Shown here: one piece after another, positions 1,189 to 56,810 of the stretch
Layout of the letters: each line of letters starts with the position of its first letter
How positions within the stretch are numbered: the first letter of the stretch is position 1
Origin: Nymphaea colorata
Lineage: Eukaryota
Length of the DNA: 64,000 nt
Reading direction: 5' to 3'
Assembly (NCBI RefSeq): GCF_008831285.2
Contig: NC_045138.2
Coordinates: forward strand, 38,068,001 to 38,132,000
The notes under the pieces: generated by a model
The model's database searches: none
What the model saw: the letters and a program-made list of their open reading frames with translations, nothing else
Told to the model about the DNA's origin: nothing
Translations under genes and position numbers: made by a program

Positions 1189-1921
1189 GTTGTGATGGCA
1201 TTGAGAGACTGTCTGGTTGAAGGGTTCCTCTAAATAGGATTGTTTTTAAGTAGATTGCTTTTATTTCTACTTCTCGTCAATAAGAAAGAGTACTGGTGGG
1301 ACTGATCAAAAGGAGGAGTCTTTTTTATAGGGCTGGACAAGAATGAAATTTCAGATGAAGTGGAAGTGACATAGAGTGAAAACTTTATAAATTAGGAACT
1401 CATAAAGATCATGAAACAAATTTTAAAATGACGACAAATAATTGAAATTCTTAAAGTTGCTTTCAGTGTGTATTTGTACTTTGTCTGTTCATGCCAATTA
1501 AATGATTCAAATTTGTTTCTTTGGGCTCTCTAATTTCATGAGCTTTGACTTTCTGCTCTTTTTTCAACTCCTTATATATGAAAAAAGAGGAGGGGAAGCT
1601 CTTAGTTAGTTCTTGTTATATGTATGAAGAGTTGTTGAGCCAGTTCCTTGTAGAATGAGGAGGAAGGACAGTGTCTAGGTGCTTGATGAGGCTATTATGA
1701 GAAAAGCTCTTCGGCCCTCTATGTTGTGCCACCTAGAGAAGCCTTTTGTACATAATTTTGAGAGACCACCCCTTAATGTCATCACTAACCTTAGTAGCTA
1801 CCTTTCAGTTTTATGTGTCTCAATCTCAGAGCTTCTCTTTCAAGACATCCGATAAAGTTGGAACGATACCGCCATAGGGCTTCATTTTTGCCTTGCTAGA
1901 TCACCGCCATGGATGAAAACC

Positions 1922-2146
1922 TAAGCCTGGGCACTGCGTACCCAACGGGTACTTGGTACTCTGCCCGATAAGTTGTCATGCAGCCCGATGGGTTTGATCA
2001 ATCAGACCATTTTATTTAAATATTATTTATTATAATTAATTATATTTATATATTATTTTATATTAAAAATATATTTTTTAGTGTTAATCGGGTCCACTAG
2101 AATTCCAGTTCCAAGTCAGGCCGGGCCGGCCCCATGCATAGGCCTA
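1922..2146. mobile_element. Degenerate hAT-type MITE
   Basis: Imperfect TIR TAAGCCTGGGCA / TGCATAGGCCTA. Flanks ATGAAAACC and ATGAAACC resemble an 8-bp TSD with one indel. AT-rich core with GC-rich ends. Confidence 0.6.
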
Positions 2147-3525
2147 ATGAAACCTGTACTTGTATTGTATATCGGATTTCAACAATTTAGAGCCTAATCA
2201 CTTCCAACTGGTCCCTGGGCCATAGCTATGGTCTGGATCCAAATGAATGAGGCCAAGAGGAATGAAATCTTGGACCAATGGAAACCCACGTTGTCTAACT
2301 TGGGTTTTTCTCATTTCAAGAATATTTGCTTGCATCGCAAATCTCCTTTTGCATCTTTTTCAATCGTCAACTCTGCGTTCCATAGAGAACCTGATGCAGC
2401 GATTAAAATTCTTCTCCCTAATCGTCGCAGAGATGCAAAGTAAGAAAAGCAAACTAATGAAAATAAAGAGAAGAATAAGAAAGAGGAAAGGAATTAGGGC
2501 TCTACAATCAAATGATATTTCATTTTCCTCAAACGAATCCCCTTAAAATGGGTTTTTCCAAATGGTTTTGGATCTTGCATCCAAATACAAATGCAACAAA
2601 TGATAATCAAAAGGTTCAAACTTAACCAAACAAAGTGAAAGCTCAAAATAAAACTAAGCACCCTGTGCGTTAGGGCACAGGGCAATCGGACGATGGCCCG
2701 ATTCCGGTGTTCCGGCGGACGTCCTGTTCATACCATTGATGGGGGGAAAGCTCATTCTTAACAAATTTTCAAATGTTATCACAGGAAATGCTAGATGGTG
2801 CAATTGCGACTAAAAGGAATTTTAATTTGAAAAGGTTATGAGCACCGAACTGTTGCCTGAGTTTTCTTCAGGAACTGACCACTACAGGTAAATCTATTCT
2901 AGTTAATCATCCATCCCATCCTACTTCTTGCCCAACTACAAATCAACTATGCTAACTAAGTAAATTGCTTGGGAGAAATATGCGTTGGTATCAATGCTGA
3001 AAAATATATGCTCGACATTAGAAGCTAAAACTCTTTGCACATAGAAAACCAGAGGACAGACAACAGGGAAAGGAAGAGATGTTACCTGGACCTCACCAGC
3101 TTTCAGGCTGCCATGAACATGATGCTTCTTTACGGAAGCGCAAAGAAACTCCAAACCGTCCCTGCATAATGAGTAAATTGATTTCCAGTAGGAATATGCT
3201 GGGGAGAAAGGCCCCCTTCATCCTAAACAAGTTGCGCCGTGATGGTGGGGAGCCTGTTAAGGAACTTCAACCTGCACGCGTTTTCTTTCACTTCCTTCCA
3301 TTGTGCAGGGGTACCCCTTCTAGAGAGGGCTATTTGCAGGCACCTATGCCAACTATTGTTGTTGGTTATGACCTTCTTGATGCCTCCAATTTCTCCCATT
3401 CTAGCGACTTACTGAGAAAAACCAACTCTGCATCATCTTTTCTTCCTCCCCTCCCTGTACTGACGCCTCACAATTAATCGTTGTCCTCTGTTGGTTTTTT
3501 CCTAGCTGCAAAAACTACCACTAAG

Positions 3526-3947
3526 TTCATTTCAGCTCTTGTTGGGAGTCATCAATCTTCTTGTTCTTTCATCCAAATTTGAGAATGTGCTGTGTGCTTG
3601 TCCTTCGTACATTGACTCGATATCATCAAAATCCTCACTGCGACTGCCGTCTGTTCTTCCTTCTATGTAGCCACGCATGCCACATTTTTTTGGGAGCTTC
3701 ATCCATAATCTTCAGATTAATGATATTTCCCTGGTGCATGTAGTAGGAGTATTTGATCGCAAGTACAACAAAAAAAAGCGAAAAAACATGTTTACCATGT
3801 TCAGCGATCTGGAAGCAGGAAATGTTATCGCAGTGATACTGAGGACTTTGGTGATTTGGAGTCCATGTATGAAGGACAAGCACGCAGCATATTCTCAAGT
3901 TTGGATGAAAGCATTGGGAAGATTGATGCCTACTACCGTGAAATGAA
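3526..3947 (+). ncRNA. Candidate hairpin RNA / young MIRNA precursor formed by inverted duplication of a PHO2/UBC24-like N-terminal coding fragment
   Basis: 3566-3637 pairs with 3840-3911. The first 47 bp have no true mismatch on the + strand (4 G:U). Outer helices are 3550-3560/3918-3928 and 3526-3534/3939-3947, with a ~185-nt loop. Transcription and processing are not demonstrated. Confidence 0.6.
3541..3670 (-). pseudogene. Second, inverted decayed PHO2/UBC24-like N-terminal fragment (5' arm of the hairpin)
   Basis: The minus strand reads SEDFDDIESMYEGQAHSTFSNLDE, then a 1-nt frameshift before KIDD. Confidence 0.65.
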
Positions 3948-3975
3948 GCAGCAAAAAATCAGTGTTCTGTTGTAA
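3788..3975 (+). pseudogene. Decayed fragment resembling the PHO2/UBC24 N-terminus (3' arm of the hairpin)
   Basis: The frame from 3841 reads EDFGDLESMYEGQARSIFSSLDESIGKIDAYY, then diverges to a stop at 3973-3975. It resembles the recalled plant PHO2 N-terminal motif (YGGxAQxIxSxL[DE]E[ST]IGKID). The upstream ATGs at 3788 and 3797 are out of frame with it. Confidence 0.7.
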
Positions 3976-4750
3976 AGGCAGAAAGGAACGGGTTCTAAGA
4001 AAAAATTATCTTTAAAAGGTCTTTCTCTTATCCTTGAGAAATTCTTAGCAAAAATGAAGAAACTTTTCATTGCAAAATTTTTCTGTTGAATGAGAAAAGT
4101 CTTGTCTAGGCCTTATGAGTTTCTTGAGTTTAAAGAGTCTTCGACTAATTAGGGTTCTAATGGCTTTTTGAAGATTCGGAAGTGCTTAGTCGCCCTTTGA
4201 TTTGCTAAAAAAGAAGAACAGCAACATCACCTAACTCGATATGGCGAAGCTTTAGGTTGGATCGTAATAACGACAAGTGTCCTCTACTTTATACTCATCA
4301 AGCGTGTTATATTTCACTTCTCAAAACAAAGGAAGTTACTTGTTCTTTAAAAAAAAAAAAAAAACTCATTCCTAATGTTCAAATTAAAAATTTGAATATG
4401 GGATATTGAGTATACGATATTTATTTAAAAATATTTTCGATCCAAATCAGGATCCGGATGATATTTACTTACTTTTAAATCCGATAAGATGTAAATCTGA
4501 ATCATGTCTGATTTCTTAATCAGATATCATTTTTTTCATATCCATTTTTTAAATTTAAGTTATTCCTATTAGATTTATTGACATCCCTGGTGTCACATGC
4601 GTCAAATCAATGATATTTTTATCTGAAACTGAATCTACCATATACGGGTAATCTGGATCGGGTGAATTCGTTCAAAATTGTTATGCATAAATAATTTTAT
4701 TTTATTTTATTTTTCTATCCACAGAAGATGTAGATCTTGAGGATCACTAA

Positions 4751-5120
4751 AGGGGTGTTTGATGAGGCTGAAATTATGGAATTGTAGAATTGAACTTTTT
4801 ATTTTTTATGAAGTGGGAATTGTATTATCAAACAAAGAATTTTGATTTTGGAATTATAGGCTCATGTTTTAATTAAAATTTTTGTGATTAGAGATGGAAT
4901 TATGATTTCAGAATCATGGAATTTTTTTCATATCTCTATAAAGCATATGTGATGATAATTTTGATTCATCAATTCTAGAATGTTATTTTTTATCGCAGTC
5001 ATTTTCAATTGTAGAATCAAAATTGTGAACTGCCAAACACAATGAAAAACTAGAAGCGAAATTTTCATTCCAATTTCAATTTTAAGTGAAATTTTGTTTC
5101 TAGAAATTTAATTCTAAAAT
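4751..5120. mobile_element. Tourist/PIF-Harbinger-like MITE remnant; a homologous fragment lies at ~55257-55380
   Basis: Starts AGGGGTGTTTGATG, with an internal CCAAACAC. About 120 nt align with 55257-55380 (shared TATCAAACAAAGAATTTTGATTT). Confidence 0.5.
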
Positions 5121-5774
5121 CAAAATTTAAAGAGCAATATTATAATAACAATAATATAATAATAATGTAATAATAATAATAATATCATTAATAATAATAA
5201 GGAACGATAGCAAGCCCCAAAACTGAAAGAAATGAATGAGCTTTATCGATGTCTTCCAAAGCGACCATGGACGAATCTGAGGACTTTCCGCTTTTTACCC
5301 AAACCCTCCCATCTTAGTCCTCCCCTAATCCTTAATTTCATGTTCCCCTTTTATTTTGTATAGTTATTTAAGAGAGCAGCATACTTTTCAATAATTAAAA
5401 ATCGTCACCCAAAAAAATAAATTCACACGCCCAAATTTAGTTTTGATTGGGCAAAATTATACCCTTTTGGCTCCTTTACTTAAGAAAGAAGTATTAAGTT
5501 GCACCATCGTTAACGAGTTCATGTTTGGCCGTCTTACCTTCATTCTTTTTTTTTTTTTTCTCCTTGGAATGTTCATTTGGAAAAACTTTTACCGTGAACT
5601 TTGAAACAATGTTTGCATCGGATTGATTAAGCAAAAATTAGTGACACCATATGGAAATGTTAGCTTTTGTTGGTTGTATCTGAATAATAAAAAGCGTTCA
5701 GGTAACGTTTTGCGTAGCTTCCCCGTTACTTTGTGAGTCTCGCCAACTAAGTCTCTCTCTCTCTCTCTCTCCCC

Positions 5775-8700
5775 ATGGATCGGAAACGCCTCTGCTGTTC
5801 TCCCTCCTCCAAGTTAGCGTAAAGTTGCTTTATCTCTTCCCTCTTTCGTTTTCTTAACTTTTCACCGAAATTCTGGTTTTTTATGAGTCACGCATGCCTC
5901 GTTCTGATCGCCTGACTTTGTTCTTGTTCCATCCCCGTCTTTCCTTTGGTTTGCTCATCCCAGTGATTGCTTCGTGGGCATGTCTGCTTCTTCCTCCTCC
6001 TTGCCTGGCGACGTGTTCACCGTCGACGAGGACCCCAATCACCAGAAGCGGAAGAAGAATATAGTAAGAAGCCCATAATCAAATTCTTCTCCTGCGATCC
6101 TTCACTCTGTTGATCAGTATTTTTTTTTTTCGGTTGTTTCGGGGATGATTCCGTCCTCACTCTGTTGATCAGTATTTTCCTTTTTCTCGGTTGTTTGGGT
6201 GATGATTCCGTCCGACGATCTTTTTGCGGACCATGCGGGTTATTCTTTCTCTGTTTTTTTTTTTTTTGGGTGAGAAGAGCGTCCTTCACATCCCTCCGTT
6301 TAGGTTTGCCTACTGGCGAAGGAATTCACATTTTTCTTGACTTTTGTGGTCTTCCCTTTTCGTTGCGTAGTGAATTATGGTGGGGCCGTTGGTCCATACT
6401 TTATTTTTTCTTTTTCTTTTTCTTTTTTTCTTAACCTTTTCCGTCAAGTGTTTTTTCCTTCTGTCTTTTTTCTTTTCTTTTTTTTTTTTAACTGCAGCGT
6501 GCTTAGGTTCGAAAGTTGGTTATCAGTACAGAATGGCGTGCTGAATTCACTGTTTGTCAGGTTCAGTCGAGTTGGTGGACTTGAAGTCTTATTGGGGTTT
6601 CTCTCCGTTGTATCGCTATGTTGATCTGGGTTTCTATTATGCACATACTTTAACTTTGATCTTTCACCGCTGTTGACCTCTTTTATTGTGTTGCTCTTAA
6701 CTCTATTTTTGCGGTGTTCAGTTCCTTGTTCTTAATCTTTGTTTATTCTGTGTGTGTGGGGTTCGTCGTTTCCTTTACCTTAATCGTCCGAATGAGATTT
6801 CATCTGTTCTGGATGTTTTTTGAGGGTGTTTTATGTCGGTGATTAAGCAGTACGTACGCGGTTACTAACTTTGCGAAGTGGTCTGTTCATATTCTGAATC
6901 CAAGCAACCCGTTGGAGGCAGTAGCCGAGCCGCTCTTTGCTAGTTTTGTTCATAATTACTAATATTGAACTCCGCATGCAAGGAACAATGCCGTGATGAT
7001 CTAGGTTTCAGGAAAATTTAGGAGAAAAATATTGAAGATATAAAAAATTAAAGAAGGATAGAATAATAAAAATGGAATTAAAAATGTATAAAATATAGAA
7101 AACAATTGAAAATGTTATACCTCTCTTGTTAAGTAGTCATACTACAACAACAAGATCGTGACTATATTGTTTACAAATGTCCCCTGTTACCTGCGTCAGA
7201 GATTGATTAACCGAAAAGGGTTTTTTTTAAATACCAGGGATGTCTATGGTCATTGTTTTGTTTTTCTATCCCTATCTTAAGCCTTTCAGAAGGTACCGAC
7301 TTGCCAATTTCTGAAAAGGACAACTTAGGAGTTGAGAGACCCATTTGGTTTAAATGTTGCTTATGCTATGCAATGATGCTTATACTTTATCATGGGATTA
7401 GAAAATTAATCATAAGACCGCATTTTGATTCTAAATTAATGGAAGTAACTAATAGACCATCTTTTGAATCATGAATCTTTGCTGTTACGTGATTGTGATC
7501 CACTAAAAGCTCATATTCGTCAATATAAATAGCTATGCATAAAGCTAACCAGAGGAGAAAGAAAATGAGCAGAAGCCTAAACATAAGGAAAATAAAAATG
7601 AATAAGGAAATGCAGTTCCGATAAAATTGACAAGAAAATTTCAAACCACCACAGACAACTAAAATCATAGTATCTGGGGTGATCCCCATCCACTTATCTT
7701 TGGTAGTTTAACAATCACGTACTTGCTGATTTCATCTGCATGGGCTTGTAAACTGGAACTTGTAACTGTTATCAACCTGGTCGTTTTGCAATTGCCAAGA
7801 CTGAAAGTCTGGAATTATGTTGTACAGAAAGAGATCGTGCTCTTTTTGTGCATAACAGATTCAAATCATTAGGATTTATGGACTTGATTGTGCCAATAAT
7901 CACTATAAAGATGCAAGCTTGTAACAATTTTTAAGCAACAAGGTCAGTGAAACTCTTCTGCTAACTTCCACGAAGTAACAAAATGACTGAATTCTTTAGT
8001 CTTAATATCTATCCCGTAAAGGGCAGTTAATATAAACAAAACTCTCCCATGTCAACTGAAGAAAAGTGATGAAGGCTTTCATAAATATCTCACTGTAACC
8101 ATGCTAGCTAATGATTAAAATTGTGTTACCCTATCATGAATTTTATAGTAAACTTAAGTTATCTTCCGCCTTCTAGGGATCCATGATTTCTATTTTCGTC
8201 ATATTTTGCTCAAGGCATTAGAACTATGCTCAAGCAAGTCAATATATTCATATACCTATCATGACTAATATAACTTGTACCTTTCATGTCTTGTTTTAGC
8301 AATAAAATCACAATAAGAAAAGTTCTTCAAACTTAATTTGATAACTCACTTTTGTAGTATGGTAATCCTTTCTGCACAATGGCACTTCTTCAGAACTGTT
8401 CACATTGGGATATTGATATTTTATACTTATGCAGGGCGAGTGTGGAGCTTTCACTATTCCTCCAGATGAGGTTATTCAGATTGACGATGATGACGTTCCT
8501 CAAAATGGAATCATAATTGGTGGGAGCAGTGCTTTTTCAATGTTTCAGGGGAAGAATGAACCCATGGTGCTTCCTCATGGTGGAGAGAAGGTTACACCAG
8601 ATTTTTTATCCTTTGGCATGGCCATATGTGTTTGGGCTGCTCCGTCTAATTGAGATATTTGCTGAAGAAACTAATGTTGTTCTACTTGCTTCCTTTCTTT

Positions 8701-11157
8701 CAGAGGGATGTTGCAAAACTAGCAGAGAGTTCCTGGGAAAAAAAAGTAGCTGTTCTTCTTAGTGATTACAACTTGTCATATCTGGATCTGGACCCTTGTG
8801 ATGGCCAAAGACTTGTGGGCAGTCAACCAACAAGCACAATCTCAAATGATTCTGATGAATACATGGGTGTGGAAGAAGATTATGAGGTTGCATATGTTTC
8901 AGATGGCGATTCTTTATCTCCTTGGACAGCGGATATGTTTGCACATGAGCCTGATCCAAGCTCATCAGCAGGACCAAGCTGTCCAAGTCTGATAGAGCAG
9001 ATTGAAGCAAACATTGCGAGATTTAGAGAATTCAAGCAGTTCGACACTGTTGTTGATCATTCAGATAATCACTTCGATAAATTACAAAATCCAGGGAAGT
9101 TCTCTCTTTTCAATACAGATAACTTACATCCTCAGGTGGGCAAGGAACTTTCAAATGTTTCTTCCTCCTGGGTCTTCCATCAGTGACTGATTGTATATGC
9201 ACCTTTCTCAGCCACGGCAAATGACTTCAAAAGAATGGACAAGACACATACAGCAGGAGTGGAGCATCCTGGAGAAGGATTTGCCAGGTACGACATAGCC
9301 ATATTTTATCTTAAAAATGTTACGTGTTAGTTATGTATTTGCTAGACTCTTAGTTTACATTTTCTATTTTCATTTGTTGCTTATTTAGTCATTTTTTAAT
9401 GTCTTCTTATTAGTTCCTCTTTTATCTTATTTTTACCTAATTTTTAGGATTTCTTTTTTTAAAAAAAAATTGCTGAGATTATCCTGAGAAACATAACTTT
9501 TTTCATATTATACCAGAGAAAAACTTTGCCGTTTAATAACTGTAAATGATATATGTCTCCATAGCCTATAACCTGATTAAATGGTTAAGGAAATAACTCA
9601 TCGAGCATAAAAGTAAAGTCAAACCGTTTGAAACATAATCCTGCAGCTTTTTTGGCAACTCTTAATCCATGACTCTGTCAACCATTTACAAATTTGCAAG
9701 AGCTTGATGTTCTTAGTTCTTACATGAAAATGCTACCACTATCTGTCATAAGCATCATGGAATTTCCTAAAATGCTTGATCCTTACGTATGGACAAGTGT
9801 TGAAAACTTGAAATAGCATGGCTGATTATTTTTATATTCTTGGGACAACCATTTTTTTTACGGAACTTCTTATTTTCTAATTTGGCAGATACAATATATG
9901 TTAGAGTGTATGAAGAAAGAATGGATCTTTTGAGGGCTGTCATTCTAGGGGCTGCAGGAACTCCATACCATGATGGTCTTTTCTTCTTTGACATTTCTTT
10001 CCCACAAGACTATCCATACAGCCCACCGGTAAGTTTTTTCTTAATAGGGTGCTCTTCATGTGTGCTTTTGTTATCATTTGCAAGATTTTAACGGCTTGTT
10101 GACTGATTGTTTTGCAGTTGGTTCACTATCACTCTTTTGGCCACAGGATAAATCCAAACTTGTATGAATGTGGCAAGGTCTGTCTTAGCCTTTTGAATAC
10201 TTGGCATGGCAGCCGTGCAAACAGTGAGACATGGATACCAATGAGATCCACTGTTCTTCAAGTTCTGGTTTCTATCCAAGGTCTAGTTTTGAATGAGAAA
10301 CCTTACTTTAATGAGCCTGGATACGAAAGATCAGCAGGCAAGAAAGAAGGTGAGAGCAAGGCGAGGGACTATAACGAGCAGACTTTCCTTTTATCTGTGA
10401 AATCTATGTTACACCTTCTGCGGAATCCCCCAAAGGTTGGTTCAGACTGCATAAATGTTTATTATGTCTTGCTGAATTTCTTTGGAATTTTATTGCATAA
10501 TTTGTTGGAAGAGCTTCAGATGTTTGAAATCTGTTTATTGCCTGCCTCTGACTTGAATCGTTATGATATCTAAATAGCTATGTGGTTCTCGAGCATAATA
10601 GTGATGTGCAAATTGGCAGCTAGCCTGATTTTAATGGATGCCAACACTTGGAGGAACTTGATATGTGACTAACTGGAGGTGCCTCCATGTCCCGCATTCA
10701 TCAGTCTTCCCCTTGCTGGCTGGATCTTTCAGTTGCTTGATTAACTTTCTAGAAGCAGCTTTGCTTATCTAGTTCTAATGATGTTCAGACTTCTGGAATC
10801 TTCTCTTTGAGGGTTGATGATGAGAGAGATTAAGTTCTTTTTTTTTTCCTTTCTATTTATTTTTTCCAGCATTTTGAATCATTTGTTGCCGGGCATTTCT
10901 ATGTGCATGCACCGTACATTCTGGAGGCATGCCAAGCATACATGCAAGGAGCACAGGTGGGTTGTCTTGCAGCAGGCGGCATCCAGGATGTGGATCAGGG
11001 AGACAAAAGTTGCTCTGAAGTTTTCAAAGCATCACTTTCTGATCTCTTCCCAAAGTTGGTGACAGCATTTACTGATAATGGAAGTGATTGCCAGAAATTT
11101 GTCCCCAAGCCAAAAGAACCACGCGAGCGGAAACTGATAGTGAAAACCTGGGACTGA
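5775..11157 (+). CDS. UBC25: Ubiquitin-conjugating enzyme E2, UBC25/26-like (UBC23-26/PHO2 family UBC domain), ~515 aa, 8 exons
   Basis: Exons 5775-5812, 5964-6063, 8435-8590, 8704-9135, 9212-9287, 9889-10028, 10118-10435, 10870-11157, all GT-AG and phase-compatible. UBC domain: IQQEWSILEKDLPDTIYVRVYEERMDLLRAVILGAAGTPYHDGLFFFD...HRINPNLYECGKVCLSLLNTW (catalytic Cys)...LNEKPYFNEPG. The C-terminal GAQVGCLAAGGIQDVDQGDKSCS resembles plant UBC25/26. The first three exons are less certain than exons 4-8. Confidence 0.9.
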
Positions 11158-15053: not shown

Positions 15054-16184
15054 CTACACAGAGCAGTGGAACTTCTCCAATGAGCGGAGGAAGTCAAGAG
15101 CTGCCTCCCTGGCCTTCTCCGGCGGCGGCACATCAGGGTTCAACGGCTCAAAATCTGCCTTCCATTCAGCCTTGCACTTTTTCTGCTCATAGCCGGGTTC
15201 TGGCATGAAAGTAAAGGTGATCTTGTATGGATCATACATGTTCCTGAGCTCACCATCAACCAGACTGTAACTCACCAACCGCCCGTTCTCAACCTTCTCT
15301 ATCTTCTGTGTTGATTCCTTAACGAAACCCCGCAAAGCTAATTCAACATCAAACAAGTGTTAAGATCTTCATTCTGCATATTGTGGTGCTAGTGTATGAA
15401 CACAGCTACACATTAGGTATGTGTATGTGTGTGTAACAACATTGAATGGCGACTTACTGACTTATGAGGGTCATCCAGTCTATCATGATGAACAGTTGGA
15501 AAAAAAAAAGTGGAGAATATTTTTATTTACTAATATTAGCTTGCACTTTTTTTGTTTGTTTTTCTTTCAACTGTCCATCTTAAAGGATAAGACGATCCTT
15601 ATAAGTGAGTTAGATTACTTTCGATAGACATATATGTAGACACACACCCATTTTTGTGCTTGGTATGTTCGTATGTAGCATGTATTTATCACCATGCGTG
15701 CACGAATTCACAAAAGATGTGAGCATCCGTGCTACTCAGAGCACGGACCTGCTGCTGGCCCGAGCTGGCCATGTTAGATCCCGTGGGACGAAGATGAGTT
15801 CATGTTTATCTCTCTCTCTCTCTCTCTCTCTCTCACGCATTACATTTCATGTAAGTCGGAAACAGCCGAAGTGTGCGGGACTTGTGGACCTGGTCGACGT
15901 ACATTTGCCGTAAATTTTCAGGTTAGGATCATGTTGATTATGTTATCTAATTGATAACAGAGACGACAGGAAAATACGAAAAGGAAAGTATATTATAGCT
16001 CCAGAAGATTACCAGGTCCTAGCTTGAAATGGCGCAAGCTTCCGGGTGACCCATCTCCTTGGAGATACTCTGCTTCAGCAAGGAACTGAGGATTTATTTT
16101 GCTAACAACCTCGTTATTCATAAACATTCCCCACGCAGTAGGAGCAGGGACATTGATCATCACTTCTCCTTTGAGGGTTCTCAT
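15054..16184 (-). CDS. Major latex protein (MLP)/Bet v 1 (SRPBCC) family protein, 151 aa, 2 exons
   Basis: Exon 1 16184-16013 (MRTLKGEVMINVPAPTAW...EYLQGDGSPGSLRHFKLGP, glycine-rich loop GDGxxGS). Exon 2 15337-15054 (ALRGFVKESTQKIEKVENGRLVSYSLVDGEL...CKAEWKADFEPL). Phase-1 intron typical of the family. TATA-like TATTTAA at ~16256-16262 on the minus strand. Confidence 0.92.
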
Positions 16185-18146
16185 TGTCACTTCCTCTCTC
16201 CTTTCCTGTAAGGCTTTGTTCTGCAAGTTGCTGATTCTAGTGCACGTTGTGGTCTTAAATAGGCCGCTTGAACCCTAGAAAGGGACACAAGAAAGCACCA
16301 AATAGATTAGAGAATGATATGGTGAATATATCTTTTCTTGTCAGTTCTTGTTCCTGTCTACCTTTTATTGATTAAGAAGCACGACCAACTAATTGATCAA
16401 GACCACATACAGATAATGATTCTATTATAAAGCAGATTCCCTATAAAGGGCATGGCTCATTGCACTTTATACCTTCAGCCTACTATAAAAGCTGCAAGCC
16501 TGCAATTTCAAAGATTACCCAAACAACTTTTTACTATGAGAGCTACAGGAGAATGGTTTCCCGGTCTACTATAATGCATATACTAGCTATGTAGTAAATG
16601 GTCAACATGTATATAATATTCCTACCGTACAGCATCAGCGTTATTATGTATATAACTAGGTGCAATCAGAGTTCATGAATGTGCTTCCAGCTATGTGCAT
16701 TTTGGAGTAGAATCTTTAAACTATTGAGCAATTATTATAAAAAAAAAAAAGGTTGCCAAACGAATCTTTTATTTGGTAAATAATAGCCTTTATGTGACCT
16801 AAATGATATAGACCTTGTTAGGTTTCAAGGTCAAGTTCTCTTTTTGTTCCATATAGGAATACCACCAATGAAAAATTATGATAAAATAAAAATGGCGTGG
16901 AATTATAGGGCCTGCGTCATGTCCTGCTTTCTATGAAGAAATTCATTCCGTTGTTTTGGAATTATGGCAAAGGACACGGTCCGATATTGGACCATCGATT
17001 TCTTTAAATTTTAAGGCTGAACAAAGGTACATAGGTGTTGTTTGAGGAACAACTTATACAAGACGTATCCTGAATACACAAAAAGGAATTCCCGAGAGCA
17101 TCTCGAAATTTTATGGACAAGAAAAAACTTTCGATGTTTAATCTCCCCTTTCTCTATCTAGAATTTGTGAACAAACTATTTAGGGTAGAGTTCATTATAA
17201 TTCTATCAATTTATATTGAAATTTTTTCTTTTCTCGGTGTCCGCCTTTAATTGCATGCATTGCATTTGCATAATTGCTAATCACCAAGTATTAGAGTTGT
17301 TAAAAAAGTTGTGATGCTAACACAAATGTAGTCCAGTTCATGTTATTTTACTTCATTAAGAAATCAAATAATAAATTATAAACTCATTTCTGTAATTCTT
17401 CCCTTTTTGTTACGTTTATAAAAATCCAAAATGTTCACCTACCGTAATTTTATAATTTCTTCCACCGGAATTCGTCACCTTGCGCAGCCATCAATGTGGA
17501 CAACCCGGTTCTAGTCACATCTGAGGGACCAAATAGCACCATGGACGGCAAAGATGCCCAAATCTTGTCAATCGAACAATGCAAAAGTGAGATCGGAACA
17601 TGCCGGGGGTCGCGGAGAAGGCTGTCTGCTTTCGTGCCAAGTCTCCCATAAAGTTTTGCATGCTGCATCTTCCCATTTTGTCAACTAGCGATGAAGTGAA
17701 TCAGGTTCTCTAACAATGATATGAGACGTGATATTTCACTTGAATGCTTCGTCTCTTTCGAACTCTTAGAGTATGCTAAAAATATGGCATTTAGGCCACA
17801 AACTGGCTTCACAGGTGCGTAGATTGAATTTTATAGAAGCATTTTAATCAACAATCTTATATTAATGGACTCGAAAATTTAGTCTGCACTTCAAAATTTT
17901 GCAATCGCTTTGAAACCCTCTCTCCGAAGTGTCGGTCGAATGCAGAAGATAGAGGTAAACATGAAAAGAAAAGAGGATTGCAACACAGAGAACCGGAGAA
18001 CATACGAATGCCATAATCGGCGCATATGTAATGATCGGCCATGTAAAAATATCGTCGGAATGACCTGTGCGGGATAAATTTCATAAAAGGGTGCAACAGC
18101 GTGATCCGTTTGGCATAGACCCAATTTTTCCTCTTTGATCCCTTAT

Positions 18147-22293: not shown

Positions 22294-25200
22294 TACACAC
22301 ATGTCAGCCCCTCCAAGAAAAAATTGTATCTGTGCCCCTGACTACTTTCCGCCATTTAGTACTACATTCTATTGTTGTTTGGAGACAGACAATCTGAATC
22401 TGTTCATTCATAGAAGCTACGAGGCAAGAACAGAAACACTGCCAATGAAAGACTGATTCAGGTGTCAAGACCACCCATCAACCATGGTTGGTTTTTGCAT
22501 ATTACAGCAATGTGGATGGACTACATCCACATCAGCCTTTAGATATTGTTCACGAAGTGTTCAGATGTCCTAAAGAGTTTTGCTTCATCCAGTGATAAAT
22601 TTAGCAATATCCTCAGACATAAAAGTATAAAATAAACTTTTATTCATATTAAAAGGTTGGCACTAGTACATAAGTAACTCCAAGTTTAAGAGGATGAATC
22701 TTCAGTATTGGTCAAAGTACCTGCATCCATACTTGCCAATTGCCCATAACAAGCAGATTGAATAGTGTCACCATTCCATTTGGATAATCATTGAAATTGA
22801 AAAGTAGATAGCTACTTGTATTAAGGAAATATGATGACCAACAATGCTGCTTTTTAAAATAATATTGTAACACCTTCATCACATAAGAAAAGAACTAAAA
22901 TCGAACATTAATCATCATACAGCCCTCACTGACAAGATCAATGAACAAAGTAAAATGCAGTTCTAAAAATGGATCAGCCAGCCTATAGCAACTTGAGAAG
23001 GATACTCATCATCCCAAAGGTCTGTGCTCTCCAGTTTAGGGTTCCCTGAATAGACAAGGCCGCCAAAGAGCTGAACAGTGAAAAAAAAAAGTCTGTATAA
23101 GCAATATTAATTGATCGAATTACTTCAGAGATGAGAAAAAATTTATCCCTGGAGTTTGCAAAACTTTCAAGAGTCGCATCATATTCCTGTCAAGCTAACA
23201 ACAACTCATACACAGAAAGCGCTAATATAAGCAGAGTTGTCTCACTGCATCTAGCACCAATTTTGGCTAAAAGAATATTGTGAAGCATGTACGATCCATG
23301 AAGTACTATTAACAGGAGCACAACATAATTCAGTTGCTAACCTGACAACAATTTTCATGTAAGCATATGAAGCAAAAAGACCCTGCCAATACATTCACTG
23401 AATATTTGCCTATTTAAAATCATGCAAAGCCATACTAATGACACAAAACATACATTACTTACAAAGTGACCACTTGGAACGGAAAAAATGGCAAGATCAT
23501 TTCAGATAAGAAAAAGCATATCGATGAAAATACACTGTGAGGGTTTACTATAGCAATATTTCCAAATTGTTGTTTTATGAAACAAAACCATGTTCACAAG
23601 AAGAAGTCAGATGCCTTAAGTAATCATAAAGAAGATTCTCAATTTTCATAATGCAAACATATCAATCTTGACGCTCCTCTCCACAGGATTTCTGACATCA
23701 GATTCTTTCTTTCCTGATTGTAGTTGTTTCCTTAAGATAACAGTTCGGGATGATGCTGATACACATTTGTAAAATTTCTTTCTCACAACAACCTCTTTTC
23801 TCTTAGGAACTATATATCTACATCTATATTTCTCAAATTTACTTCAGTGTTGTCTTTATTTTTCACATCTCTCACTCCTACGACAAACTTCGCACCGATT
23901 TGTATGGCCATTTATGCCCAAAACAAAAAAATTCAGTTCCATATATTTTTTTTGGGAACCTTTTTGCAAGATGAGATTTTCTTGGGAAAGTATTGGGAAA
24001 GCTGTGGCATTTTAGAACTTAAAAGCAATGTTGTAAAAAGTGCAGTGTTGTACGTATCGTACGATACGAGCCCGTATCGTACGATACGTATCCTATTGAT
24101 CACATTTTACGATACGATACACCCCCCGTATCGTAGATGAGGGGTGTATCGGCCCTATATCGCACGTATCGTGCGATACAAGGCCCGTATCATACAATAC
24201 GGGGCGATACACCCTGTATCGCACGATACGTGCTAATTTTTTAGGAGACATTAAACAACCAAAAAGTAAAAACCCTTCGATGCCCGACCCTTCTCCTTCC
24301 TCTCTCTTGACTTTCAACAGTTCCGGTGGGTGTTTGGGCAGCTACAGACCGACGGCGACCGACAACCAGTGACGGATGGAGAATGGCAACGGACGGCGAA
24401 TGAAGGGATATGGGTGAGAAACCCTCCCTCTGCTCCGTTTCAGAAGATAGCGAGACGAAGGGAGGACCGTCGAGCCGTCGATGGGAAAGAGAGAAGAAGA
24501 AAGCAGGGCTGCCCGGCGGTCTGCTCTTCTTTCTTCTCCGCCCCCTTCTTCTGCCTTTACCTCACTTCTGCTGCCGCTTGATGCGCCATTGGCCGTCGCC
24601 ATTTTCGTTGTGCTGGGCATAGAGAATAAGCTGGCGGTGCGTGAAGGGTAACAGTGATAGGTTGCATCGGGCGGCTCCATGGCGGGAGAAGGCGATCGGT
24701 GCCTCACCCACCTTCACATAGAGGAATGAGCATTTGAAAGCCCTAATTTTTCATTTAGCTCGGCCTCCCGGTTTTGCATATTCAAAGTGGATCTTACATC
24801 CAAATCTGATAGGATCCAATGAAAGTGATGTGCATAATTTAGACATAAGTCTCCATTCGGCTTTGAATTCCAATGGTTTGGATTTGAAAGTCTTCCACAT
24901 TGAAATTTCATGGATTGAAGAACTTATTATTTTTTATTTTTACTGATTTTTTAAGAATTTTTTGAATTATTTTTTGATTTTTTCTTGATTTATTATTATT
25001 ATTTTTTTAAAAAATGCGATACGGTTACGATACGGTTACGATACGTTACGATATTTTACGATACGGCGTATCTTAAAGCCCGATCGATACCGGTTACGAT
25101 ACGTTTTTTACAACATTGAAAAAGTGTATCATAAACCGTATCGGTCTGGCTTTAAGATACGTCATATCGTAAAATATCGTAACCATATCGTTTTTTTTTT

Positions 25201-28200
25201 AAAATAAATCAGAAAAAAATTAAATAAGAAAAAAATCGAAAAAATCATTAAAAAATCAGTAAAAATCAAGAATAATATGTTCTTCATAAAAAACATGTTT
25301 GACAGAATGACAGACTTATTATTGCTATAAAGTTACGGTTTATCATTCGTAAACATCAAAATTCATAACAATATCAATCTAGAAAGCACAAGTCAACAAT
25401 TACATAACGTATATCATAATTTCATAACCATAGATTCATAAGTCATAAGGTCCATAAAGTCTATGAGATACCACATCAAAAAGCAAGTTTGAAATGTTAT
25501 ATATTACATCACAAGATGATAATGGAATTGTGAAAATGTTCAATGTCAACACATATAAAATGAAAGCACTCTCGACCCTCATTCATAATCTTCATCATAC
25601 TCATTCCCATCCTCATCTCCATCTTCATCTTCATGATTTAAAAAACCTCTTTCCTCCCAACAGGAATAAGCCACCCACGCACAAATCCATAGTTTAATCG
25701 ATGATTTCATGGTGAAAATCGATGATTTCATGGTGGAAATCGATGATTTTCCTCCAAGGCGGCACAATCTCTAGGTTAGAAATGAAGAAGAGGCGGGTTT
25801 TTATGAAGAAAAATCGAAAAAGGGGGGTTTGGGCCCCCCTTTTTTGAAATCAGCCCGTATCGCACGATACGGGGGCCTGTATCATATGTATCGTACGATA
25901 CAAGTATGATACACCACAATTTACGATACGGGAAGTGTATCATATCATGTTTCCTAAACGATACGATACGTATCATACGATACGTACAACACTCCTTAAA
26001 AGTATAAAAACAAAGAAAAAGTTACAAGATAATAGGTTTTCTAATTACTTTCTTGCAAAAATCATTAGAGAAAATCAAACGAAATTCATGTTTAAAAACG
26101 AAGCTTCCTGAATGCCTGATAAAAATATCAGAAATATAACAGGATAATATCACAGTAATTTTCTTTCAATGATCTTCTAAAAAATATTGGGATATTTCTA
26201 GCTGGCTGCAGATGACCACAGCAATGGGGTATTTTCAAAACATTCTTGAAGCACATAGAAATTGTTACTTAAGCTACTCTATAAGAAATTTCCCAAACAA
26301 AAGGCCGGACAATAAAAGAAGAACCAGTATGGCACTAGTACCTGCAACCCAAGAGAGCAAGAAGCACATAGAAATTGCTACTTAAGCTACTCTATAAGAA
26401 ATTTCCCAAACAAAAGGCCAGACAATAAAAGAAGAACCAGTATGGCACTAGTACCTTCAAATTTACGATACGGGAAGTGTATCATATCATGTTTCCTAAA
26501 CGATACGATACGTATCATACGATACGTACAACACTCCTTAAAAGTATAAAAACAAAGAAAAAGTTACAAGATAATAGGTTTTCTAATTACTTTCTTGCAA
26601 AAATCATTAGAGAAAATCAAACGAAATTCATGTTTAAAAACGAAGCTTCCTGAATGCCTGATAAAAATATCAGAAATATAACAGGATAATATCACAGTAA
26701 TTTTCTTTCAATGATCTTCTAAAAAATATTGGGATATTTCTAGCTGGCTGCAGATGACCACAGCAATGGGGTATTTTCAAAACATTCTTGAAGCACATAG
26801 AAATTGTTACTTAAGCTACTCTATAAGAAATTTCCCAAACAAAAGGCCGGACAATAAAAGAAGAACCAGTATGGCACTAGTACCTGCAACCCAAGAGAGC
26901 AAGAAGCACATAGAAATTGCTACTTAAGCTACTCTATAAGAAATTTCCCAAACAAAAGGCCAGACAATAAAAGAAGAACCAGTATGGCACTAGTACCTGC
27001 AACCCAAGAGAGCAATAAATACACAGTACACAAAAGACGGTTCCAAGGTATGGCATCAGGCTCGGAATAAGAGTAAAAAATGTAGCCACAAATGCCCTGT
27101 AGCGGTGCACATGCATCAATAGTCTAGTTAAGCGCAGCATCCTTGCAATAAGAAGGTAACGGATCCTGAAAGAAGAAAAAAAAAGATATATCAAGAATTG
27201 CAGAACATATTTTGAAAGGAGGAAAACAGATATTTCAGGACTTGCAGTCTCGTAGCTAGCAGTTAATGTAATTAGAACAATAAAAGTTTTACAGATTTTT
27301 CTTTCAGTGCTAGAGATAATGGACCATTTATTTCATGAAAACATCTGTAACACGAGTACGGCTCTAAAAGAGCAGTACCTGTATCGTACTGGTACGTACT
27401 TGGATACATCCTAGGTATGTGTCTGACCATATCGGATACGGTCAACGTACCCGTGTACGTATCCGGTATTTTTCAGACTTGGTCAAAGTTGACCAAGTCC
27501 AACTTTGGATTAGGTTTTGGTTTTTCCTTTTCTTACTTTTAAAGAAAATGCAAAGCCCTTGACTTTTGTCAAGGGCCGTGCGTATTACCCATTGTAGCAG
27601 CAGATGTTTGGTTCTTTGGTGACGTTGGTGCTCGGTCGACTGGTTTCTGGCAGTTTTCAGTGAGAGGTAATGCCTCTGGCGAAGGACGACACAGCTGCAG
27701 TTGTTCACCGACTTCACCGACTGATTTGGGCATTTTTTTGTTGAAGCTTCATATTTAAGTTTTTTTTTTCTTTTTTGGCGGACTCCCATCATCCAACAGT
27801 CTATCTGTTCACTTCCGGCAGCAGGTTTAGAATCGTCCTCCCTTCTTCTATGACCTACATAAACTACTCTCCTTTTTCTTCTTCGAAAATCATAGTGTTT
27901 GCCCTTTCCCTTTTGTATTTATATGCAACCATATTTTTTTCAGTTAACAGTGCACCGTGCCTTTTTTATTGTTCGATTTGAACCGGTTTCTTCCTCTTTT
28001 TTGTTGTTTCATGTGTGCTCCTATATTATTTTCTGTAACTGACCTGTAACCCATTCCATTTCAGCATTTAGCACTTAGATTCCAGTTCCACATTGCTGAG
28101 CTGTGGTTCATATTTGACTGTCTAAGGGACTGGTCAGTTGTTTGGTAGATGATTTTCCTCATTCCATTGCAACTTTGCAATATGTGCAGCAGATGACTTT

Positions 28201-51145: not shown

Positions 51146-51628
51146 GCAGGAAAAAAAATTCTAATAACATACTATATCTGGTAGAATCAAATCAAAGAGC
51201 AAACAGGTGGTCTCAGAAACAGAGACAATGAATGGAAGGAACGATGTGCTTGGTTCAAATGGATTATATGATTATATCATTAGAAGTCACGAAATAAGCA
51301 ACATTTCAAGAGGCAGTACAATATATTGAAACCTCGAAGTCCAATTCTGTATCCTCATCAACCAATCAAGAATTGCCGATTCACTAAGCAGGGGAAAAAA
51401 AATTCTAATAACATACTATATCTGGTAGAATCAAATCAAAGAGCAAACAGATGGTCTCAGAAACAGAGACAATGAACGGAAGGAACGATGTGCTTGGTTC
51501 AAATGGATTATACGATTATATCATTAGAAGTAACGAAATAAGCAACCTTTCAAGAGGCAGTACAATATATTGAAACCTCGAAGTGCAATTCTGTATCATC
51601 ATCAGCCAATAAAGACTTGCCGATTCAC
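51146..51628. repeat. ~244-bp tandem duplication in the ALG6 leader intron
   Basis: AATTCTAATAACATACTATATCTGGTAGAATC...TGCCGATTCAC is present twice at offset 244 with few substitutions. Confidence 0.92.
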
Positions 51629-54347: not shown

Positions 54348-56810
54348 GGGGAAAAATGCGATGGGTGACGTCCCACGACGCATATTCCATGTCAAATCTC
54401 CAATTAATAATCCCACTAACATTAGTGTGACATGCATATTCTTCGTCAACTACTCATTAGAAAAAGAAAACCCTTCTTTCAATATGTGTAAATCGATTCT
54501 CAGACTGAAAATAACGCCATAAAGTCGCTTTCCCGTTTTAATTTTTAAGAAGATGAATCCATTTTCAGCGAAGATCGAACCAATGGTGGAGCCAGAAACA
54601 TTTGAATGAGAGCACGTTAACTTGCAACTTTTATAAAGGGCAGCTAGTGTGTAAACAAGTAAAAATATAAGATATTAATATGAAAATAAATAGTTTATGT
54701 GGCACTGGTGTGGGCAATTGCCCACTTGTGCCTCACGCTGGCGTGGACCCTTGCTGTTTCGGGCAATGGTTGAATCGAGGGGCAAAAAAGTCATTTTACT
54801 TTTTAAAAAAAAGATATAATAATATTTATTTGATTGAGTTGTTTGTGAATTTGTAAAAAAAGACAAGGGCCTCTGGTTATATTGCAAAAAGTGAGGATCA
54901 ATTCATTATTCGCCCAAAGGTTCGGCTTCCTTTCCTAAAGGTTTCTATGATAAGCACTAATTGGTTTTTAATGAGGATCCAAGTTATGAAATCTGTTATT
55001 GAGATTTTTTTTTTTTTTTTTCCTTTGACCAAGTATACTCGGTTCGATTAGCGTAACCGTTCTCATTTGCTCGAGGTGCAAGCTACAATAATGTGATTGC
55101 AACCAAAGCAAATGCTGAAAAAAGGAACATCAATCTTTTATTTGTATGAACCATTTTGGAAGAAGGTCAATGACACTGTTCCGCCTTCTTGATATTGATG
55201 AAGAAGGTAATCCTTAAATTTATGACACAGGGGACTTCCATGTTTACGATACTAACAGGGCGTTTGATGAAGTCGAAATTGTGGAATTCGAGAATTAAAA
55301 TTCTCATTTTCATGAAATAAGAACTGTGTTATCAAACAAAGAATTTTGATTTCAGAATTATAGATTCATTCTTGAACCAAAACTTAGCTTGCATGAAGTC
55401 TAGATCCGCTGGTGTTACCTGTTGTATCATCACATATTAACAATTTAATGAGATAAGCTTCCCTAGAAGGCGTAAGATATACATGTTATACGAAACTTGA
55501 TCAAATCCAATGTTCAACGTATCGATCAAGTTATCCGAATTGGAGTTTTTTTTTTAAAGTTAGTTTCATCTTTAAGGAACAATGCTCATAGGTTACTTTC
55601 TTACCGGGTACTATCTTCATTATGATATCAAAATATAATCTTAATTATACATACTCGTAGCTCAAGCCAACAAACAATGGCTCTCTCATCAATGCAATTG
55701 GGCACTCTACGATTTTGAGATTTGAGTATTTCTATGGGCAGTTGCCCACACAAACTTTACTTATTTTTATGTTAATAATTTCATATATTTGGTTGTTTAT
55801 AAATATGGGTGCCCAAGTTATTGAACTAGTGCCCCTACTTCTGGCTCCATTAGAATTCCGACACGACATGCACTGAAGTAAATATCATGGAAGTCCGAAC
55901 CATTTACATTCTTAGCTTCATTGTCAAGGAAGGAACAGTGGCTTTTTGGTCGTTTAGTTCATTGAATTCAGGGAAAAATGCGATGGATGACGTCCCACGG
56001 TGCATATTCTACGTCAAAGCTCCACATTGATAATCCCACAAACATTAGCATGTGACATGCATATTCTAAGTCAACTACTCGTTTGAAAGGAAAACATTTC
56101 TTTTAACCTGTGTAAATCGATTCTCAGCCAAGTATCTGCTGAAAATATCACCAAACAGTCCCGTTCGTCTAAGAAAATCACGAAATTTGTCATTCAAAAA
56201 ATATTTGTTTTAGTGTTTCATGAATTTATCACATTTTTTAAAGCAAACTTACAATGTATTACTGCTGCCAAACTGCCCGTTCGTGTAACCTTTTATGCTT
56301 TCAAGTGTTTAAATTTGATCAAGGCGCGTACAAAATGTTACGTAATGTGATTGCATCCAAAAAAGAATGCTTTAAAAAAGTATCAATCTTGTCATTACAT
56401 GAATCAATTTGGAAAGTCAATGCTACTGTTGCGCGTTCTTAATATCGATGATGATGGAAACGTTTAAACTTATCACAAGAGCTTGCAGACAGGAGACTTC
56501 CATACATAGAGGCTTGCTATTCTTCTACATACATACACATGTTTATACAAATAAATAATTCATTTTATCAGAAGATCAGCTGCCCTTATGCTTAAAGAAT
56601 ATAAGCATTGTAAAACACTCGAACAAATTCAATGTTCAATGTTTTCAAGTTATTGGAATTCGAGTTCCCTTTGTCCTTACAGTTTCATTCTTAAGGAACA
56701 ATTATTAATGGGTCACTAATTTAACAACATATGAACTGAATGATATTCACGACTCAAGCCAACAAACAACAGCTCTCGCATCGATCAATGCAATCGGGCA
56801 CTTCACAATT
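54348..56810. repeat. Old, diverged tandem segmental duplication in the ALG6-MACPF intergenic region
   Basis: Collinear blocks: ~54348-54503 vs ~55971-56127; ~55070-55240 vs ~56320-56500; ~55490-55705 vs ~56615-56800. They are interrupted by MITE-like insertions in the first copy. Confidence 0.8.
55257..55380. mobile_element. Truncated copy of the Tourist-like repeat seen at 4751
   Basis: AGGGCGTTTGATGAAGTCGAAATTGTGGAATT...ATCAAACAAAGAATTTTGATTTCAGAATTATAG aligns with 4751-4860. Confidence 0.5.

Follow-up and report, generated by a model that had tools for sequence, protein, structure and literature searches.

The start of the PHO2/UBC24 coding region is present in Nymphaea colorata as an imperfect inverted repeat that lies 3.5 kb behind the gene from which it was copied, within a stretch of 64 kb (hereafter the window) for which no longer inverted repeat is listed. 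One of its two copies retains the end of a PHO2 intron, the arms form a long stem, complementarity to PHO2 mRNA has been kept and an orthologue occurs in RNA contigs that carry a second species label. Whether a rare RNA from this locus folds back and is diced imprecisely to 21–24-nt RNAs, some of them able to guide PHO2 cleavage, is in our estimation an evenly balanced question. A first-pass annotation, made from the letters of the window, had described the locus as a PHO2-derived hairpin and candidate MIRNA. The feature is real and was correctly identified, and it is better supported than that annotation could know, since the donor gene was found in cis and RNA contigs were recovered from two lineages.

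The PHO2 source gene and its neighbour

The window opens with the last 11 codons and the stop (TGA) of PHO2/UBC24 (1–36, + strand), the source of the copies and their predicted target, whose gene body lies upstream of the window. The residues encoded by 1–33 are those of the C-terminus of KAF3779020.1 (11/11) and agree with residues 931–941 of XP_031474358.1 at ten of 11 positions. On the + strand, 3.5 kb separate the end of PHO2 from the hairpin downstream, and 1.8 kb beyond the hairpin begins the neighbouring gene, an E2 of PHO2-like class (5720–11157, + strand; Pfam UQ_con); both genes had been overlooked by the first-pass annotation. The product of the neighbouring gene is near-identical to residues 942–1478 of XP_031474358.1 (over 5720–11154) and reaches 93% with its N. 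thermarum counterpart, which is a separate protein named 'putative UBC E2 39'.

In the N. colorata RefSeq record XP_031474358.1 ('UBC24'), which has 1478 aa and two UQ_con domains, PHO2 is continued past its stop into the E2 gene, and the hairpin falls inside a modelled intron; to judge from the sequences, this record is probably a fused gene model, i.e., an annotation error. The N. thermarum models KAF3779020.1 and UBC E2 39 both lack a UBC-core exon of ~106 residues that is present in the N. colorata record, which is probably an annotation skip, and it is suggested that the PHO2 and E2 39 genes are adjacent in N. thermarum too.

Several other features of the window were recorded. A gene of the Bet v 1 / major latex protein family (Pfam PF00407) is located at 15054–16274 on the minus strand; nested inverted repeats with 65-nt arms (85–86% complementary, MITE-like) are found at 24916–25286; a dispersed repeat is present in two copies that are 78% alike (4713–4848 and 55251–55385); and 25918–27026 and 51149–51628 are near-exact tandem duplications, the first with a period of 542 bases and the second of 244, which are either recent duplications or assembly artefacts. 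A miR399-like site at 2335–2353 (+ strand, target orientation, three mismatches) was rejected as not significant, given that eight of 100 shuffles yield one, and P1BS-like motifs are no more frequent than by chance, with 13 found against 13.3 expected.

Origin and layout of the copied pieces

Both arms of the repeat were copied from the opening ~50 codons of PHO2/UBC24. The 3' arm translates into 42 residues, which matched two of three candidate proteins, both of them Nymphaea UBC24 (KAF3779020.1 and XP_031474358.1; E values of 3e-8 and 7e-8), with UBE2O SH3 and UQ_con domains. Alignment to PHO2 by tblastn gave 29/34 identities for 3832–3933, 24/34 for the minus strand of 3654–3553 and, in a different frame, 11/13 for 3788–3826 against PHO2 residues 1–13. 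The resemblance of the arms to the PHO2/UBC24 N-terminus, previously put forward from the letters of the window, is borne out by these matches, all of which are to Nymphaea UBC24, and the decayed peptides of opposite orientation read exactly as they had been given.

The 5' arm (3550–3654, minus strand) is an inverted copy of PHO2 codons ~14–49, onto which 23 PHO2 reads switch at a joint at 3654/3812. It is followed by a loop segment without assigned origin (3655–3714), into which the inverted copy is not significantly continued (876 of 5000 shuffles score equally); a decayed prolongation of that copy was dropped on this shuffle test. The rest of the loop (3715–3829, + strand) is a direct PHO2 copy composed of an intron end (3715–3739), part of the 5'UTR exon (3740–3787), the ATG (3788) and codons 1–14, with 15 listed substitutions, nine gap letters and a frameshifting 4-nt loss near 3825. 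The 3' arm (3830–3928, + strand) is a direct copy of codons ~16–48. Overall, the PHO2 homology comprises ~100 nt of inverted copy and 212 nt of direct copy, the extended homology that characterizes an inverted-duplication locus. When reads at 80% likeness were placed on 2700–4335, PHO2 mRNA fitted 3740–3926 and departed at both ends, and a contig of the DNA run X11 fitted 3715–3805, i.e., it extends into the intron end. Since the direct copy includes PHO2 intron sequence, it was made at the DNA level, and a retrocopy origin is ruled out.

The repeat adjoins a flanking block (2743–3445) that is multi-copy in organism I, the X11 depth being ~139 over the block and 37 on the PHO2 contig of the same run (about four times), and the contig of the other block copies diverges from the window sequence at 3445. 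A related copy of 2743–2887 was also seen in an RNA contig of run X17 at a depth of 62. The block bears short pieces of other genes that the first-pass annotation had overlooked: a short gene-like fragment at 2901–2944, and one exon plus intron end of a second, highly expressed gene at 3080–3177 (minus strand), of which mRNA reads and contigs cover 3080–3157 with 13 other letters while a genomic contig continues to 3177. The latter may represent a URM1 exon by its appearance, a name to which Pfam, PDB and protein searches with 3080–3177, all without a match, lend no support.

A Pack-MULE or Helitron would be expected to bring together short pieces of several genes, intron edges included, as is seen here with 2901–2944, 3080–3177 and the PHO2 pieces; no convincing terminal repeat, target-site duplication or element ends were found in 1800–4600. 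A high-copy MITE family was rejected: the arms consist of host coding sequence from PHO2 and not of MITE ends, no second copy occurs in the window, and the 3' arm is covered in X11 by the PHO2 contig only. The simplest account would be that the inverted duplication took place locally, next to a small gene-capturing repeat or inside it, and the other gene fragments in the flank allow for an origin by neutral duplication or by gene capture. Searches of a broader kind gave six Rfam matches on 2500–5000, all far below the gathering score, no match in a metagenome scan, and a single match among protein representatives, an unrelated efflux-type repeat protein that was discarded.

Folding and class of the hairpin

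The segments 3566–3637 and 3840–3911, which had been described as reverse complements, match at 63 of 72 positions (87.5%), and a repeat search stretches them to 3566–3647 and 3830–3911 (82 nt, 84%, with a spacer of 182 nt). On the + strand, the 82 stem positions comprise 69 Watson-Crick pairs, six G:U pairs, two A.C oppositions and five other mismatches, and 3566–3612 builds a helix of 47 bp without a mismatch. An unbroken helix of this length is a good substrate for Dicer-like enzymes. The fold-back proposed for the + strand was reproduced by folding (MFE -192.8 kcal/mol, z -13.2, 0/100 shuffles as low), and the minus strand reached -172.9 kcal/mol (z -12.3). The outer helices claimed to run to 3526/3947 were retained in part: the helix 3550–3563/3915–3928 is backed by PHO2 homology, whereas the outermost one, to 3526/3947, is not above chance (274 of 5000 shuffles score equally).

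The criteria for plant MIRNA annotation require a foldback of at most 300 nt, a duplex with at most five mismatches, at most three bulged positions and no large loop, as well as miRNA and miRNA* in sRNA-seq with a precision of at least 75% in at least two libraries (10.1101/213314). The hairpin foldback measures 346 nt (core) to 379 nt, and only the distance between an inner guide and the corresponding star (~250 nt) stays below 300 nt. The MIRNA class that had been suggested for it fails at this length, so the label of endogenous inverted repeat or proto-MIRNA is the safer one.

RNA coverage of the locus

Contigs specific to the locus in two RNA-type runs with different species labels, X5 and X17, outline a putative non-coding transcript of ~1.1 kb (2851–3998). 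X5 gave contigs over 2851–3223 and 3252–3659 without any difference from the window, at a depth of ~3 vs 50 for PHO2 (6%). X17 gave one contig of 1041 nt over 2966–3998 (~96% alike, differing by 43 letters, plus 24 gap letters) that covers both arms at a depth of 7.5 vs 180 for PHO2 (4%). X5 has no own-locus contig beyond 3659 and covers the 5' arm only, and both arms are joined only in the X17 contig, which is an assembly and not a molecule. Since the two runs contain spliced PHO2 contigs and their totals (48 and 62 million letters) are small against a genome of 410 Mb (PMC11437788), they behave as RNA.

Additionally, the region 4020–4335 has zero depth in all four runs examined, out of 24 listed, among which none is marked as small RNA. 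For 16 further rows of the list, shares of 0.2–0.4 could be accounted for by the multi-copy flank and PHO2 alone. On the basis of the spliced contigs, the small run totals and this drop in depth, DNA carry-over is a less likely source of the own-locus contigs than a discrete RNA of low level, and the unspliced contigs in the two RNA-type runs make it likely that the locus is transcribed at a low level. On the other hand, in the raw RNA run X22 (6% of the run) none of 196 reads was at least 99% alike to the locus and five were at 95–99%; nearly all of the 196 bear PHO2 or second-gene letters, and first mates are divided about evenly between the strands. A transcript, which the first-pass annotation had taken as a premise, is likely in view of the low-level contigs of X5 and X17, the latter over both arms, and finds no support in X22. 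PHO2 itself shows good expression in each of the three RNA-type runs. The DNA run X11, which shares the species label of X17, has no contig on 3446–3714 or 3927–4335, a gap that may reflect filtering or real absence in the sample. As for orientation, the + strand is the likelier RNA strand, as its six G:U pairs vs two A.C would suggest, although this difference is not significant.

Complementarity to PHO2 mRNA

Of the 47 positions of the 5' arm from 3594 to 3640, 46 pair with PHO2 mRNA, the PHO2 letters being those of RNA from other samples (three of 25 PHO2 differences in X5 are unlisted). The listed differences between PHO2 and the 5' arm are at 3613, 3641 and 3642, and the arm-arm comparison adds G:U pairs with PHO2 at 3578, 3587 and 3593. 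The 3' arm has seven listed differences from PHO2, all in 3837–3870, and none is listed in 3871–3926. Under position-class scoring, all 61 plus-strand 21-mers are predicted to match PHO2 with a penalty of at most 2.5, seven of them at 0, the cut-off used in a study of A. halleri being 3 (10.1101/2024.07.25.605110); the same 61 windows give duplexes with at most four mismatches and no bulge, within the limits for a MIRNA duplex. Among the minus-strand 21-mers, 35 of 62 score 3 or less, so either strand could give PHO2-directed RNAs, and a minus-strand RNA would likewise carry an arm antisense to PHO2. The earlier proposal that the 5' arm is antisense to PHO2 just after the start codon holds as regards the pairing, whereas the arrangement is not unique to the + strand. 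The 5' arm has not diverged too far to guide cleavage, the predicted site being at nt ~54–128 of the CDS, and products of the hairpin are predicted to be complementary enough to act on PHO2. For plus-strand guides that begin at 3617, 3614, 3609, 3588 and 3567, cleavage is predicted between CDS nt 67/68, 70/71, 75/76, 96/97 and 117/118, respectively.

Age and divergence

The X17 orthologue keeps the window letter at 3613, 3641, 3642, 3837, 3839, 3846, 3856 and 3870 and has the PHO2 letter at 3851 and 3858. Since it shares eight of the ten listed arm-vs-PHO2 differences (3/3 in the 5' arm and 5/7 in the 3' arm), the hairpin predates the split of the two species labels. It is slightly better paired in the X17 lineage, and each arm is ~7% diverged from PHO2.

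Mismatches avoid the 47-bp helix (p 0.014–0.02), and the 3' side contains a run of 56 nt (3871–3926) without a listed PHO2 difference (p 0.013). The arms differ from PHO2 at 13 of 178 positions and the loop copy at 15 of 91 (p 0.03), a comparison confounded by the faster-changing PHO2 UTR. The excess of G:U pairs is not significant, whether counted as 6/13 (p 0.08–0.28) or as 6/8, i.e., six G:U vs two A.C (p 0.14). Selection on the hairpin is suggested by these patterns, with tests that were post hoc and a pattern that gene conversion could yield identically.

Proposed function and alternative explanations

The start region of PHO2 was duplicated in inverted orientation at the DNA level 3.5 kb behind PHO2. 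It is proposed that a rare non-coding RNA of ~1.1 kb, the likely transcript of the locus, would fold into a stem of 80–100 bp, which Dicer-like enzymes would cut into 21–24-nt RNAs able to pair within the opening 130 nt of the PHO2 CDS. The processing would be imprecise, like that of an endogenous inverted repeat or proto-MIRNA, and would not release one clean miRNA/miRNA* pair. Through AGO-guided cleavage, PHO2 levels would fall and phosphate uptake would rise, independently of miR399. Separate degrees of confidence apply to the parts of this proposal: the production of PHO2-matching small RNAs could, as we judge it, fall either way, and it is rather unlikely that such RNAs matter physiologically, the effect on PHO2 being probably small or limited to some tissues.

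A neutral relic could account for the same locus. Duplication or transposon-type capture would have left two head-to-head PHO2 fragments whose leaky RNA yields no meaningful small RNAs, an explanation that we regard as possible, if somewhat doubtful. It fits the multi-copy flank of organism I, with its two other short gene-like fragments of which one has an intron edge, the divergence of the arms from PHO2, the two further 3'-arm changes that arose after the split of species labels A and I (one of which breaks a pair) and the lack of own-locus reads at 99% or above in X22. RNA contigs in two species labels that end near the hairpin, with no depth beyond it at 4020–4335, argue against a relic, as do the suitability of the 47-bp helix for Dicer-like enzymes and the clustering of the mismatches. 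None of the 46 N. colorata precursors in Table S4 of PMC11548254 matches the locus by eye, which is in keeping with a relic, but these precursors are only ~60–100 nt long, so that the table could not include a locus of this size.

If small RNAs are made, they might act through chromatin instead of slicing: mainly 24-nt siRNAs would direct methylation to the repeat and to the matching PHO2 exon, or change how PHO2 loops to the E2 gene. This seems improbable to us. The hairpin does have a gene on either side and a repeat next to it, such action is described for gene-proximal endogenous inverted repeats of Arabidopsis (PMC10827316), and young hairpins often begin with 24-nt AGO4 products (10.1101/2024.07.25.605110). 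Against such a route, 21 nt is reported as the main peak in Nymphaeales libraries (10.1101/2020.04.25.061721), and PHO2 is well expressed in the three RNA-type runs. A precise MIRNA with one dominant pair, from the + strand 5' arm (e.g., 3614–3640) or from the first arm of the minus strand (3926–3871), is very improbable: in 3607–3640 the 5' arm has one change vs PHO2 and its partner seven, as a guide and star would, the minus strand has the 56-nt run free of listed changes, and both options give duplexes with one to four mismatches, but the two patterns favour opposite strands, the foldback exceeds 300 nt, and long unbroken helices are said to tend toward mixed products (PMC10827316).

Imprecise dicing of the folded RNA, the reading preferred here, has a stronger form, according to which the PHO2-exon hairpin, retained and expressed in two or more Nymphaea lineages, is a second, miR399-independent small-RNA brake that slices the PHO2 CDS and is immune to IPS1-type mimics; we think this unlikely. 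PHO2 is the hub of systemic phosphate control. If the stronger form were true, a lineage-specific hairpin would provide a second input to PHO2 that bypasses the 5'UTR sites, and the locus would be a MIRNA caught forming, with its donor adjoining, in an early-diverging angiosperm.

Comparison with known systems

Young MIRNAs reportedly arise through inverted duplication of the target gene, a model ascribed to Allen et al. 2004. The hairpin is of a kind already known, both target-derived young MIRNAs and endogenous inverted repeats being described in several sources (10.1101/213314, PMC10827316, PMC12096063, 10.1101/2024.07.25.605110), and PHO2 as the target is unreported. A PHO2-derived hairpin was not found in the titles and abstract openings of the literature listed. 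ANAgdb holds 141 N. colorata miRNAs (PMC11437788).

The closest likeness is to Aha-miR217 of A. halleri, where the inverted-duplication route is reported to be rare, with two cases (10.1101/2024.07.25.605110). As in that locus, the arms hold target sequence beyond any 21-mer, with one direct and one inverted copy of a first exon, and the predicted sites fall within the copied first coding exon. Unlike loci of the Aha-miR217 type, which have sequenced miRNA/miRNA* pairs, the hairpin is known from sequence and contigs, measures 346–379 nt and has PHO2 as its source. The class of IR71 shares with it a foldback longer than a typical pri-miRNA stem and the formation of dsRNA without RdRP, which is predicted here; the IR71 stem has ~3 kb (PMC10827316), whereas that of the hairpin has ~0.1 kb, consists of host coding sequence and adjoins its source gene. 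Gene fragments captured by Pack-MULEs and Helitrons are reported to engage in siRNA cross-talk with their donor genes (10.1101/777037). Several gene fragments with intron edges in a multi-copy block recall these captures; unlike them, the locus has no terminal repeats or target-site duplication that could be found, and its PHO2 part is seen only here, beside the donor.

The comparison with the miR399–PHO2 module concerns the target itself, since the same gene would be under small-RNA control in both cases, a prediction in that of the hairpin. N. colorata has its own miR399a (PMC11548254), and in the reviews consulted the only RNA regulators of PHO2 that are named are miR399 and its mimics (PMC11393275). 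The lncRNAs IPS1/At4 and PILNCR1 inhibit miR399 (PMC11393275, PMC6296076). Unlike miR399, which acts on sites in the PHO2 5'UTR, the hairpin matches the start of the coding region.
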